From IMG/VR virus record IMGVR_UViG_2802429249_000009: 28,641 nucleotides of DNA; one strand, written 5' to 3'. The notes below the pieces were generated by a model, which was not told the origin of the DNA, did not search any database, and saw only the letters and a program-made list of their open reading frames with translations. The DNA comes from a virus (lineage: Duplodnaviria; Heunggongvirae; Uroviricota; Caudoviricetes). Of the stretch, positions 1 to 3,746 are shown piece after piece. The first letter of the stretch is position 1. Each line of letters begins with the position of its first letter. A program made the position numbers and the translations under genes.

Positions 1-53
1 CCAGCGACCAGCGACCAGCGACCAGCGACCAGCGACCAGCGACCAGCGACCAG
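1..53. repeat. Perfect tandem heptanucleotide repeat (CCAGCGA) x7 plus partial unit CCAG; array runs off the 5' window edge
   Basis: Read directly: units at 1-7, 8-14, 15-21, 22-28, 29-35, 36-42, 43-49, then CCAG at 50-53. Lies in the open frame 1 that continues into the RM enzyme gene. Confidence 0.95.
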
Positions 54-2103
54 TAAATCCAGAAAGACGGTAAAATCGGTTGAGCCGCAAATTTCCGACC
101 TCGCGAACTCATGGCTTAAATCTTACGGGCTTGATTACAGGCTGGAGCAGGCACCACTTAACAGCGAGATAGATAACGCCCTAGACGCCTATTTTTCGAA
201 AAATGGCGGCGCAGGTGGTAACCGTCCCGATGTAAAACTCCTTATTCAGGACAAATACGGCAGGCAGTATCCCGTCCTCATCGAATACAAAGGCTATAAA
301 GACAGGCTTATCCGGCTTGACAGTAACGGTATCATCGAGAATAAAGATTCCAGAAAAGAATGGAACTTTAAAAACATTAATGGATATGCGGTTAATGGTG
401 CAGTCCATTATGCTAACGCACTTCTCCAGTTTACCAACTACCCAGATATTATTGCGATCGGTATGACAGGCTGGTGCGATGATGATACAGGAGAACTTCA
501 TCATGAAATTGGCGTGTGGCATGTATCAAAGAATAATTTAGGGGCCGGGCAGAAGGTTGGTGAATACACTGATCTGTCGTTCCTTGCGGATAAAAATGTT
601 GACGGATTTATCGACAAGATAAAGCACCTTAATCTGCCGCCTGAGGAACTGGAAAAAATTAAGGCCAGCAAAGAGGAAGAGATAGACACTCGACTTTCCC
701 GTCTGAACAACGATATTTATCAGGATGAAAATGGGCTTGGCGAAAGTGATCGGGTTTATCTTGTTGTGGCCACGGTTATTGCCACTCTGGGTATTCCCGG
801 AAAACTTACCCCATTGGATAAAAGCGAGCTTGTATCTTCAACGGAAGAAGGGGAACGTGATGGCGATATTATTTTCAGAAAAGTTAGGAATTTTCTTACG
901 ATAAAGGGCGTCCCGAAAGACAAAAAGGATATGATCCTTCGTACTATGCAGAATACGCTGTGGACTGAAAATATTAATAAACCTGTCGATGGTGAAAGTA
1001 AGTTAAAACAAGTATTTATTAAAATTGTTAATGACCTGGGGGAATACTACAAAATCGGACTGACGACCGATTTTACCGGAAAGCTGTTTAATGAGATGTA
1101 CCGCTGGTTAGGGTTTACTCAGGATAAGCTGAACGATGTTGTTCTGACACCACCTTATGTGGCTACATTGCTGGCCAGACTCGCCAGAGTTAACCGGGAT
1201 TCGTATGTGTGGGATTTTGCCACGGGCTCTGCCGGGTTGTTGGTGGCTGCAATGAATGAGATGCTTATTGATGCCAGAGAGAACATTAACTCACCGGATG
1301 AGCTCAGACTGAAAGAAGCGAAAATTAAGGCTGAACAGCTACTTGGCCTTGAGAAGTTATCCAGTATTTACATGCTGGCGATTCTTAACATGATCCTGAT
1401 GGGCGATGGCAGCGCCAACATCCTGAACAAAGACTCACTGACCGAGTTTGACGGCAGATATGGTTTTGGTAAACCGGGAGAGAAATTTCCGGCTACTGCA
1501 TTCGTGCTGAACCCGCCATATTCAGCGAAAGGTAATGGTATGATCTTCGTGCAGAAGGCTCTTTCAATGATGGAAGGGGGGTATGCCGCGGTGATTATTC
1601 AGGGGTCCGCAGGTTCAGGTAAGGCGAGGGAGTACAACCAGAAAATACTTCAGGAGAATACGCTACTGGCCAGTATAAAAATGCCTGCTGATTTGTTTAT
1701 TGGTAAATCAAGTGTCCAGACATATGTTTATGTATTCCAGGTGAAACTGCCGCACAATTCAAAACATCCGGTGAAGTTTATCGACTTTTCGAATGATGGT
1801 TATGCCCGCTCGAACCGGAAAAAGGCACGAAACAACCTTGTGGATGTGGATCGTGCAAGAGAACGCTATCAGGAAGTTGTTGATTTGGTGCATTTTGGCA
1901 GAAGCCGCCTCAGTATATTTACGGAAGATGAATATTTTGAGGAGGTGATAGATCCACTCCGGGGGGACGACTGGAATCAGACAAAGCCTGTGGATACCAG
2001 GCCAACACTGGATGATTTCAAAAAAACGGTGAGTGACTACCTTGCGTGGGAGGTGTCGCAATTACTGAAAAAGCAAGGTAAAAACAATTCTGTGGGAAAG
2101 TAA
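1..2103 (+). CDS. Restriction-modification enzyme, fused PD-(D/E)xK nuclease + gamma-class N6-adenine DNA methyltransferase (Type IIB/IIG-like); 5'-partial, start lies upstream of window
   Basis: Frame 1 is open from base 1 to TAA at 2101-2103, with no ATG/GTG/TTG in frame before 463. Nuclease signature RPDVKLLIQDKYGRQYPVLIEYKGYKD is encoded before 463. Methyltransferase motif I (VWDFATGSAGLLVAA) precedes motif IV (AFVLNPPYSAKG), the gamma-class order. Motif recognition only. Confidence 0.75.
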   Translation, partial: PATSDQRPATSDQRPATSKSRKTVKSVEPQISDLANSWLKSYGLDYRLEQAPLNSEIDNALDAYFSKNGGAGGNRPDVKLLIQDKYGRQYPVLIEYKGYKDRLIRLDSNGIIENKDSRKEWNFKNINGYAVNGAVHYANALLQFTNYPDIIAIGMTGWCDDDTGELHHEIGVWHVSKNNLGAGQKVGEYTDLSFLADKNVDGFIDKIKHLNLPPEELEKIKASKEEEIDTRLSRLNNDIYQDENGLGESDRVYLVVATVIATLGIPGKLTPLDKSELVSSTEEGERDGDIIFRKVRNFLTIKGVPKDKKDMILRTMQNTLWTENINKPVDGESKLKQVFIKIVNDLGEYYKIGLTTDFTGKLFNEMYRWLGFTQDKLNDVVLTPPYVATLLARLARVNRDSYVWDFATGSAGLLVAAMNEMLIDARENINSPDELRLKEAKIKAEQLLGLEKLSSIYMLAILNMILMGDGSANILNKDSLTEFDGRYGFGKPGEKFPATAFVLNPPYSAKGNGMIFVQKALSMMEGGYAAVIIQGSAGSGKAREYNQKILQENTLLASIKMPADLFIGKSSVQTYVYVFQVKLPHNSKHPVKFIDFSNDGYARSNRKKARNNLVDVDRARERYQEVVDLVHFGRSRLSIFTEDEYFEEVIDPLRGDDWNQTKPVDTRPTLDDFKKTVSDYLAWEVSQLLKKQGKNNSVGK

Positions 2104-2162
2104 ATTTCCCGCTCAGCGATAAATTAAAAAGTGTTGAGTGGGGAGAATTCAGGATTGGCGAT

Positions 2163-3239
2163 TTGTTCAATGTGAGCACTGGTTCGCTTATTTCCTCAGG
2201 GAGATTAAAACCTGGCAAAATTAAACGTGTTTCAGCAAAGAGCGAACAAAATGGCATCATAGGAGAATTTGATACGGAGTTTATGGATGATGCAAGACAT
2301 TATGAAAATTTCATAAGCGTTAATTTCTTTGGAGATGCTTTTTATCATCCTTATTGTGCCAGTGTCGAAATGAAGGTACATGTTCTTACATTAAAATCAA
2401 ATAAGTCTGGCTTTAATACAAAGTGCGGATTATATATTACCAGTATGATTAATAAAACTTTAAAAGGGCGTTTTAATTATGGTCAACAGTTATCGAGTTC
2501 CAAACTTAGGAATGGAGAATATTTCATAAGGTTACCGGTAAAAAATAATGTAATTGACTGGGATTTCATGGATGATTATATAGAAGAGCTGGAAGCGGCC
2601 CACATAGAAGAGCTGGAAACATACATGGTTGCTGCTGGACTGAGCGATTACCAACTCACGGAAAAAGATCATCTTATTCTGGAGCACTTTAAGGATGTTG
2701 AATTTTCAGGTTTCCCTGTTACTGAATTATTCTCTGTGTGCAATACGAGAAACATATTGTCCAGAGATATCACAGAAAACAGCGGAGATATTCCTTATCT
2801 TTGTGCCAGTCGTGAGAATAACTCTGTCAGTACTTATATATCCTATGATTCTTCTCTCTTGGAGAAAGGGAACTGTATTTTTATTGGTGGTAAGACATTC
2901 GTTGTAACTTATCAGGAAAGAGACTTTTTTTCAAACGACAGTCATAATTTACGACTTTATGTTAATAACGAAGATGGTAGAACAATGTTTACTCATTTGG
3001 GGCTAATTACATGTATTTATAAATCTATTTCACATAAATACTCTTGGGGTAATAGTGTTAGCAATAAAAAAATCAAAAATGATGTTATCTGGTTGCCAGT
3101 AAAAAACAAGTTACCCGACTTTTGTTATATGCATAACCTTATTTCAGTCATGCAGAAACTCGTCATCAAAGATGTCGTCCAGTACGCTGATAAAAAACTG
3201 GCAGCGTACAGGCATGTTACATCTGAAAAAATCGATTAG
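2163..3239 (+). CDS. RM specificity (S) subunit with two target-recognition domains (HsdS / BcgI-B-like); N-terminus uncertain
   Basis: Frame 3 ORF with two variable blocks separated by a helical spacer (DYIEELEAAHIEELETYMVAAGL). TTG 2163 preceded by AGGA is the first canonical start, but the frame is open from 2082 and a TRD-entry-like motif (FPLSDKLKSVEWGEFRIGDLFNV) lies upstream of 2163. Second half is markedly AT-rich. Confidence 0.7.
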   Translation: MFNVSTGSLISSGRLKPGKIKRVSAKSEQNGIIGEFDTEFMDDARHYENFISVNFFGDAFYHPYCASVEMKVHVLTLKSNKSGFNTKCGLYITSMINKTLKGRFNYGQQLSSSKLRNGEYFIRLPVKNNVIDWDFMDDYIEELEAAHIEELETYMVAAGLSDYQLTEKDHLILEHFKDVEFSGFPVTELFSVCNTRNILSRDITENSGDIPYLCASRENNSVSTYISYDSSLLEKGNCIFIGGKTFVVTYQERDFFSNDSHNLRLYVNNEDGRTMFTHLGLITCIYKSISHKYSWGNSVSNKKIKNDVIWLPVKNKLPDFCYMHNLISVMQKLVIKDVVQYADKKLAAYRHVTSEKID

Positions 3240-3592: not shown

Positions 3593-3668
<76 letters not shown>

Positions 3669-3671
3669 TAT

Positions 3672-3746
<75 letters not shown>

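Follow-up and report, generated by a model that had tools for sequence, protein, structure and literature searches.

A heptanucleotide repeat tract as a probable frame switch in a restriction-modification gene carried by Escherichia phages

The neuO gene of the Escherichia coli K1 prophage CUS-3 carries a 'poly-psi' variable number tandem repeat (VNTR) and has been called a 'mobile contingency locus' (Deszo et al. 2005, PMC555961; PMC3046976, PMC13001214). Its unit, AAGACTC, begins 2 nt after the start codon, occurs in 2 to 93 copies and leaves the gene ON only at multiples of three; the repeat encodes a disordered RLKTQDS tail, and a longer tail results in higher activity (PMC3046976). In 64 complete genomes neuO carries 3 to 53 repeats and is OFF in 65.6%, and a strain with 21 repeats was found to consist of 93% 21-repeat cells (PMC13001214). 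Here we describe a tract of another heptanucleotide, (CCAGCGA)n, at the 5' end of a restriction-modification (RM) gene in a 28,641-nt stretch of Caudoviricetes DNA (IMG/VR record IMGVR_UViG_2802429249_000009), the whole of which is called the window below. From comparison of the window with its relatives, we consider it likely that the tract is a hypermutable VNTR which serves as a slipped-strand frame switch on the RM (alpha) gene of a phage-borne, BcgI-like system.

To our knowledge, repeat-switched restriction systems are usually said to be absent from E. coli. Its Type I systems have been described as non-phase-variable (PMC8287963). Repeat-switched RM genes are well known in Haemophilus, Neisseria, Moraxella, Helicobacter and Campylobacter (PMC5909438, PMC7383803, PMC4889913). 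A literature search found no paper with the exact two-unit string of either strand or with any rotation of the heptapeptide that it encodes, and neither the present tract nor any repeat-switched restriction system of E. coli phages was found described; the main text of a survey of repeats in Type I systems mentions neither Escherichia nor heptanucleotides. The mechanism is known; its target here (a phage-borne Escherichia restriction enzyme, Shiga toxin phage backgrounds included) and its scale (up to 120 units) appear to be undescribed.

The window opens inside the tract, so the copy number of its source is known only as at least 7 full units. The 3' end of the tract, cut by the window edge, occupies positions 1 to 53 of the plus strand, where Tandem Repeats Finder reports 7.6 copies of period 7 with 100% matches, a score of 106 and the consensus CCAGCGA. 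A three-unit CCAGCGA pattern matches the window six times, always inside positions 1 to 56, with 0.00 matches expected from 100 dinucleotide-preserving shuffles. The initial annotation of this DNA had noted at least 7.5 perfect copies and a repeating PATSDQR peptide. Both observations stand, the copy number as a description of the window, the tracts of relatives being far longer. Every forward frame of (CCAGCGA)n encodes the PATSDQR heptad; none of the six frames contains a stop, and there is no start codon within the repeat either. Frame 1 is open from base 1 to a TAA at 2101-2103 and its translation begins PATSDQRPATSDQRPATS KSRKTVKSVEP... The two other forward readings end soon after the repeat, one in frame 3 at a TAA immediately past the tract (54-56, 1 codon) and one in frame 2 at a TAA 6 codons past it (71-73). 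The short open reading frames (ORFs) of out-of-phase relatives agree with stops just past the tract, and such early stops are present in both junction types.

Since the repeat is free of stops in all six frames, an ORF on the minus strand is automatic. NCBI records carry a minus-strand repeat protein at this place (4405-5064 in L001, 4570-5064 in L002, with equivalents in all complete E. coli genomes examined; the minus strand of 1-53 in the window). The tract could accordingly be the body of a minus-strand gene, the 'YXWGXW repeat-containing protein' or 'hypothetical protein' of NCBI, for which speaks that the annotation pipeline PGAP calls an ORF across the tract in each of these genomes. 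However, the product would be nothing but SLVAGRW repeats, a sequence that does not fit the YXWGXW pattern, and the length of the ORF merely follows that of the tract. The TTG from which it starts in the E. coli alleles reads CTG in the window type, which would need other, non-homologous starts. We regard a gene on this strand as extremely improbable: the ORF is automatic, its start is lost in the window type, and the gene was rejected.

The RM (alpha) subunit gene lies on the plus strand at 1..2103, 5'-truncated at the window edge, and was recognised from its open frame, from matches to the Pfam families N6_Mtase and VRR_NUC and from motifs shared with homologues. The first in-frame ATG, GTG or TTG of frame 1 is at 463. 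A nuclease-type motif, P76-D77 ... E95-Y96-K97 in the frame-1 numbering of the window (226..291, with its two parts at 226-231 and 283-291), lies 5' of this codon. The open frame, the absence of a start before 463 and the position of the motif are all as the initial annotation had stated. Homologues from Neisseria and Providencia (71-73% identity, 679-686 aa) start by their own ATG at M..KKSNKSIEPNIADLANGWLKSY, and this start aligns with the window residues right after the tract, KSRKTVKSVEPQISDLANSWLKSY; judged from the alignment, the tract is placed exactly at the native N-terminus of the family. Between the window and diverged Escherichia alleles, the ratio of nonsynonymous to synonymous change (dN/dS) is 0.05-0.09 over the 136 codons that separate the tract from the first internal start, compared with 0.06 (dS about 1.1) for the whole RM gene. 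As neither these 136 conserved codons nor the repeat contains a start codon, translation must enter from the upstream ATGs described below and run through the repeat. This is what the initial annotation had proposed from the window, and the homologue N-termini and the low dN/dS of the start-less codons now back it.

Annotations at NCBI place the RM start at internal codons, giving proteins of 653, 570 or 545 aa from which the tail and sometimes also the nuclease motif are lost. They imply another arrangement, in which translation of the enzyme begins downstream and the tract itself is not translated, being a leader or a spacer between genes. PGAP calls the 653-aa protein from a TTG located 90 nt past the tract in E. 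coli alleles (equivalent to window position 145) and the 545-570-aa proteins from internal ATGs in other alleles. But this TTG is CTG in the window, where no in-frame ATG, GTG or TTG occurs before 463, and initiation at 463 would remove the PD...EYK motif. The codons that would be skipped are under purifying selection and are conserved in the Neisseria and Providencia proteins, which have their own ATG there, while a Shine-Dalgarno (SD) sequence and an ATG adjoin the 5' end of the tract in every allele. We consider a downstream start very unlikely in general; for the window, initiation at the TTG or at an internal ATG was ruled out by the CTG and by the conservation of the skipped codons.

Other repeats occur at the same end of the protein. 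Another Salmonella enterica allele has (AACAGCC)3 straight after its ATG (L179, 752-780; protein P0023), and four Neisseria proteins (P0033, P0069, P0101 and P0119) have 1-3 copies of an in-frame 9-nt unit (SNK) at the family N-terminus. The N-terminal end of this RM family is, to judge from these sequences, a recurrent site of repeat formation. Among the lineages compared, large frame-shifting expansions at this position are confined to the Escherichia phage alleles.

The 5' end of the gene lies outside the window, and its upstream anatomy was taken from relatives. At about 82-85% identity these comprise 30 complete E. coli genomes and one sequenced phage, always as lambdoid prophages; closer relatives are found in IMG/VR, among them L026, which is 97% identical to the window. 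They share the order Q antiterminator, PR'-like promoter, hok, a spacer of about 130-180 nt, AAGGA-TG (which contains a first ATG, ATG1), 5 nt, a second ATG (ATG2), (CCAGCGA)n and RM. In the E. coli relatives and in L026, ATG2-CTGCCAGA (ATG-CTG-CCAGA) leads straight into the repeat, so that ATG2 lies 8 nt 5' of the tract. There is no stop from either ATG to the tract, including in L026; a stop in this interval would have made the tract intergenic, a possibility which the initial annotation had proposed to check with upstream sequence. The SD core is separated by 7 nt from ATG2 and by 0 nt from ATG1, and on account of this spacing ATG2 is likely to be the main start. Scanning the interval from Q to the tract for promoters gave the PR'-like site just after Q as the sole match, and no separate promoter for the RM gene.

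Complete tracts were obtained from 26 E. coli chromosomes and the one sequenced phage. These 27 tracts contain 23-120 units (median about 65); draft assemblies contribute further tracts of 8-33 units, and the overall range across relatives is 2-120. Sixteen complete E. coli genomes which have 0-3 mismatches in the 3 kb downstream of the tract carry 13 different tract lengths between 30 and 98 units; over the 700 nt upstream they mostly show 0-2 differences, two genomes differing by 51. For example, Symbioflor G1/2, G6/7 and G8 have no flank differences at all and carry 91.7, 82 and 98 units, in three different phases, and three O111:H8 isolates carry 55, 82 and 57 units. Invariance of length among related genomes, which the initial annotation had named as an observation that would speak against a switch, is thus not what is found. 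Exactly 82 units are present in four backgrounds (L029, L032, L040 and L165), namely Symbioflor G6/7, O111:H8 7-32 9A, UCPROB-002 and phage PhiR12_3 (from ECOR13). Recent spread of a phage with this ancestral length could account for the recurrence, as could a preference for 82 units.

Five of the 27 tracts contain irregular units, which are possible sequencing errors and in one case a poly-C assembly artefact. The latter concerns L171 (E. coli 2015C-3121), in which a long poly-C run breaks the tract and IS1A breaks the S (specificity) gene. The run is probably an artefact of an older long-read assembly, and the phase of this tract was treated as unreliable.

With respect to reading frame, 12 of the 27 complete tracts have no start in frame with RM, 8 have ATG1 in frame and 7 have ATG2 in frame, which does not differ from equal thirds (chi-square 1.56, p about 0.46). 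In-frame expanded proteins from both ATGs are present in public records (P0003, P0004, P0007, P0011, P0145 and P0146); P0145 is a window-type protein from a complete E. marmotae genome. For the window allele type, L026 and L164 give the rule that n = 2 mod 3 places ATG2 in frame, n = 0 places ATG1 in frame and n = 1 leaves no start. Draft assemblies also supply 'unexpanded' alleles with two units, L162 and the window-type L164, both of which read in frame from ATG2, and 202 contigs share an identical short-tract Salmonella allele of 691 aa. The alleles compared thus point to short tracts that are stable and in frame and to long tracts that vary freely.

These data suggest the following mechanism. 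Replication slippage would add or remove 7-bp units and, since 7 is not divisible by 3, every step would move the downstream gene to the next of three phases. It is known that 7-nt loops escape MutS-dependent mismatch repair in E. coli, and this would permit high slippage rates in a repair-proficient host. In the ATG2 phase, a full-length enzyme with an N-terminal (PATSDQR)n tail would be produced (strong ON). In the ATG1 phase expression would probably be weak or absent, ATG1 abutting the SD sequence, and in the phase with no start the gene would be OFF, translation stopping at the TAA 1 or 6 codons beyond the tract. The phase would in this way set enzyme production, and the resulting heterogeneity may be used biologically for bet-hedging of restriction and methylation in lysogens and in phage progeny. 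The initial annotation had proposed an on/off switch operated by gain or loss of a single unit. All three phases do occur. The two ATGs 5' of the tract are in different frames, so that the switch may have a third state.

The anatomy, the native N-terminal position, the extreme differences in tract length between near-identical backgrounds and the presence of each of the three phases are read directly from the sequences. A number of points weigh against the step from there to a switch. The case rests on comparison of assemblies, in which each tract is a consensus and long-read indels can mis-set the phase. The window does not include its upstream end, and the phase rule cannot be applied to the window allele itself. 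The use of ATG1 is doubtful; it is replaced by ATA in L010 and in strain 48. The recurrence of 82 units in four strains indicates that the tract is not maximally unstable, and tracts of 50-120 units far exceed what a switch needs. Finally, a random split into thirds is equally expected of a neutral, unselected minisatellite.

A different explanation is that of a neutral or degenerative minisatellite, a repeat that grew by chance at the 5' end of phage cargo, has no part in switching and mostly just inactivates the gene. The 12/8/7 distribution cannot be told from a random one, the tracts exceed the necessary length by far and many database annotations already call the gene truncated, all of which would fit. 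However, dN/dS is 0.06 at a dS of about 1.1 over at least four diverged allele types that have the tract at the same junction, and ORF decay is seen in no allele; purifying selection in every tract-bearing lineage argues against simple decay. Out-of-frame stops follow the tract immediately in both junction types. Furthermore, neuO, which is experimentally phase-variable, shows the same random phase distribution (65.6% OFF; PMC13001214). We therefore consider a neutral minisatellite improbable.

The great length of the tracts would be explained if the frame switch were at the same time a rheostat, the length of the (PATSDQR)n tail tuning the activity, stability or assembly of the enzyme. NeuO has a disordered tail and becomes more active in linear fashion as heptads are added (PMC3046976), and the in-frame alleles of the present gene have tails of 2 to about 40 heptads. 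In BsaXI, a Type IIB enzyme, the nuclease domain at the N-terminus is flexible, and tags placed at this end were tolerated (PMC11997821). On the other hand, sequence data are silent on activity, the tail has no predicted fold or motif and the short-tract alleles, which are common and are conserved in Salmonella, imply that a tail is not required. Such tuning in addition to switching is a possibility to which we give a minor share, although a larger one than to the minisatellite, and the frame switch is the explanation we prefer.

The RM protein consists of the repeat-encoded tail, a putative N-terminal PD-(D/E)xK-type domain, a helical connector and a gamma-class N6-adenine methyltransferase. 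The match to the Pfam family N6_Mtase is strong (E 1e-18); that of the N-terminus to VRR_NUC is weak (E 9e-5, 23.0 bits, just under the curated cut-off of 23.8). The NPPY catalytic motif of the methyltransferase domain lies at 1510..1521 on the plus strand, and this motif and P-D...E-Y-K are both invariant in 10 RM homologues. The frame of the S (beta, specificity) subunit follows at 2100..3239 on the same strand and matches the Pfam family Methylase_S in two stretches, as in Type I specificity subunits. Neither the window nor any of the relative loci examined contains an HsdR gene, the neighbouring genes being tRNAs, TerB and phage genes. A classical Type I system, as suggested by the annotation 'HsdM family', was ruled out because HsdR is missing and the 'HsdM' bears its own N-terminal nuclease-type domain.

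An RM and an S gene without HsdR are the layout of the two-subunit Type IIB enzymes BcgI and BsaXI, and membership of a BcgI/BsaXI-like Type IIB family is plausible from this layout and from the labels of depositors: those of phage PhiR12_3 and of P0003 both call the protein BcgI-alpha-like. BsaXI is an (RM)2S assembly with an N-terminal PD-(D/E)xK domain on RM (PMC11997821). In common with the Type IIB enzymes that have separate subunits (BcgI, A2B; BsaXI, (RM)2S; PMC11997821, PMC3592470), the present system has two genes, a candidate PD-(D/E)xK-type motif and an N6-adenine methyltransferase (NPPY) on one subunit, an HsdS-like second subunit with two recognition domains, and no HsdR. It differs in that its proteins have no detectable similarity to BsaXI, its nuclease Pfam match is sub-threshold and its S frame, which lacks its own start codon, may be entered through a frameshift. 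A sequence search of solved structures (PDB) with single proteins or a 10-sequence profile matched no chain at E values up to 10, BsaXI included, and an AlphaFold model of RM from the 10-sequence alignment (pLDDT 52, pTM 0.34) was too poor for fold comparison.

The sequence recognised by the enzyme may also vary. Window positions 2058-2580, about 520 nt of the S gene, fail to align with the otherwise 97%-identical L026, and 99% identity resumes afterwards. The block is an exchanged target-recognition domain and implies a different DNA specificity on an otherwise near-identical system.

The RM/S junction contains a second candidate recoding signal. The RM gene of the window ends GTG-GGA-AAG-TAA (stop 2101-2103), and the heptamer G_GGA_AAG at 2094..2100 on the plus strand, directly 5' of the stop and in phase (X_XXY_YYZ), is a candidate -1 frameshift site. 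The S frame is -1 relative to RM and is open across the RM stop; its first ATG, GTG or TTG is a TTG at 2163 (codon 21), which lies 3' of the conserved WGEFRIGDLF start of the first recognition domain. A 13-bp hairpin on the same strand (2106..2144; -18.4 kcal/mol, z = -3.7) begins 5 nt past the heptamer and is a candidate stimulator of frameshifting. In other Escherichia alleles and in those of Salmonella the in-phase heptamer is A_AAA_AAG, of the dnaX type, one codon ahead of the RM stop, and it is G_GGA_AAG in Neisseria and G_GGA_AAA in Providencia and in L179. The S frame is -1 in all junctions compared (Escherichia, Salmonella, Neisseria and Providencia), and its first 21-41 codons contain no start except in Neisseria, where an ATG precedes the conserved S region.

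Hairpins of 12-14 bp occur a few nucleotides past the heptamer in 10 of 11 sequences (-17 to -24 kcal/mol, z from -2.3 to -4.6; L179 was not folded), and the two junction classes form them from different stem sequences. In an alignment of six sequences, 91% of cells pair in register, compared with 37-55% when the alignment is slid; the changes that preserve pairing are seven one-sided and one two-sided, and covariation is not statistically significant at six sequences. A -1 frameshift at this candidate site would yield an RM-S fusion beside free RM, a combination that matches the 2:1 RM:S composition of Type IIB enzymes. We know of no frameshift-dependent specificity subunit in any restriction-modification system. 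Our literature search on frameshifting together with specificity subunits found no paper linking both. Single-chain R-M-S Type IIB enzymes exist, for example TstI, as outlined in PMC4027205. Whether one mRNA carries two recoding devices, the 5' heptanucleotide VNTR and a conserved -1 frameshift giving 2 RM : 1 S in the manner of dnaX tau/gamma, is a matter on which we are almost evenly divided, leaning slightly against.

The rest of the window is phage DNA, with genes for the large terminase (TerL), portal, tail sheath, tape measure and tail fibre; in the relatives the surrounding phage genes are Q, hok and lysis genes, and PhiR12_3 is the one sequenced phage. From these surroundings, the RM/S system appears to be carried in the late region of temperate Escherichia phages, with short-tract alleles also in Salmonella. 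Genes for tRNA-Thr(TGT) (3593-3668) and tRNA-Gly(TCC) (3672-3746) lie just 3' of the S gene of the window, and E. coli relatives have tRNA-Ile, Arg and Arg at the equivalent site. In E. coli 2013C-3033 (L034, 5287-6003) the repeat-bearing RM system is located immediately upstream of stxA1c, in the Q-proximal cargo slot of the late region that Shiga toxin genes also occupy; other relatives have tRNA Ile-Arg-Arg there.

A tract-junction pattern gave 0 matches in species-representative genomes. The bare (CCAGCGA)4 was found there, among the matches listed, in unrelated high-GC genomes only, a result which is uninformative on enterobacterial spread. Short CCAGCGA arrays are present at dozens of loci in one Planctomycetota metagenome-assembled genome, JALHRW01 (L059-L121), and the unit recurs at one other locus in three viral contigs (L003, L012 and L019); both are unrelated to the enterobacterial RM gene. 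Several public contigs start or end inside the tract (L005, L007, L009, L011, L018, L021-L023, L025 and L027), which suggests that short-read assemblies break there. The S gene is annotated as intact in some genomes and as a split pseudogene in others despite an identical 3 kb (L029 and L031).

If the frame switch operates as proposed, lysogens of E. coli and E. marmotae would gain a stochastic ON/OFF restriction-modification enzyme on a mobile phage. Their hosts include Shiga toxin-producing strains, in one of which the system lies directly upstream of stx1c. Phage resistance, DNA uptake and methylation patterns would then differ within a clone, as would the methylation state of released phage particles, and methylome-based typing of such strains would be affected. 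The tract also breaks short-read assemblies and misleads automated annotation, which calls an antisense 'YXWGXW repeat' protein that is spurious and 'HsdM' genes that are truncated. As a VNTR, it could be used to type strains at very high resolution.

In comparison with the RM switches of pathogens (Type III mod, Type I hsdM/hsdS and the Type IIG gene cj0031 of Campylobacter), the present tract is likewise a coding-region repeat in the methyltransferase-bearing subunit. Those switches are chromosomal, belong to small-genome mucosal pathogens and use units of 1-5 nt, usually in fewer than 40 copies, whereas the present system is located on phages of Enterobacteriaceae, has a 7-nt unit in up to 120 copies and would switch a subunit that also carries the nuclease-type domain. 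Multi-start phase variation is known from the (CAAT)n repeat of Haemophilus influenzae lic1, where repeat number results in strong, weak or no expression. The present gene resembles lic1 in having alternative starts in different frames 5' of the repeat, the use of ATG1 being suggested by its conservation and made doubtful by its 0-nt SD spacing; lic1 differs in its tetranucleotide unit, in being a lipopolysaccharide gene and in its chromosomal location.

The closest parallel is neuO. Both are cargo genes of temperate E. coli phages with a perfect heptanucleotide repeat just 3' of a start codon (2 nt after it in neuO, 8 nt after ATG2 here) and a wide range of copies (2-93 and 2-120, respectively). 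In both, a full-length product is expected in one phase per start codon, the in-frame repeat adds a hydrophilic heptad tail and the phases are roughly random (65.6% OFF in neuO, 12 of 27 without a start here). They differ in unit (AAGACTC compared with CCAGCGA), in product (a capsule O-acetyltransferase compared with a restriction-modification enzyme), in the two upstream ATGs in two frames and the late-region location downstream of Q and hok that are found here, and in typical length (a median of about 65 units here, a mode of 20 in neuO). Switching of neuO has been proven experimentally, whereas that of the present gene is proposed from sequence comparison. The initial annotation had considered a repeat-switched RM gene to be unusual for a prophage in an enterobacterial background, a view that is weakened by the same 5' heptanucleotide design in CUS-3 neuO (PMC3046976, PMC13001214). 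With an unrelated unit and an unrelated protein family, the present tract is best read as an analogue of the neuO VNTR, not a homologue, and the two together suggest that 5' heptanucleotide VNTRs may be a recurrent way for temperate coliphages to make their cargo genes switchable.

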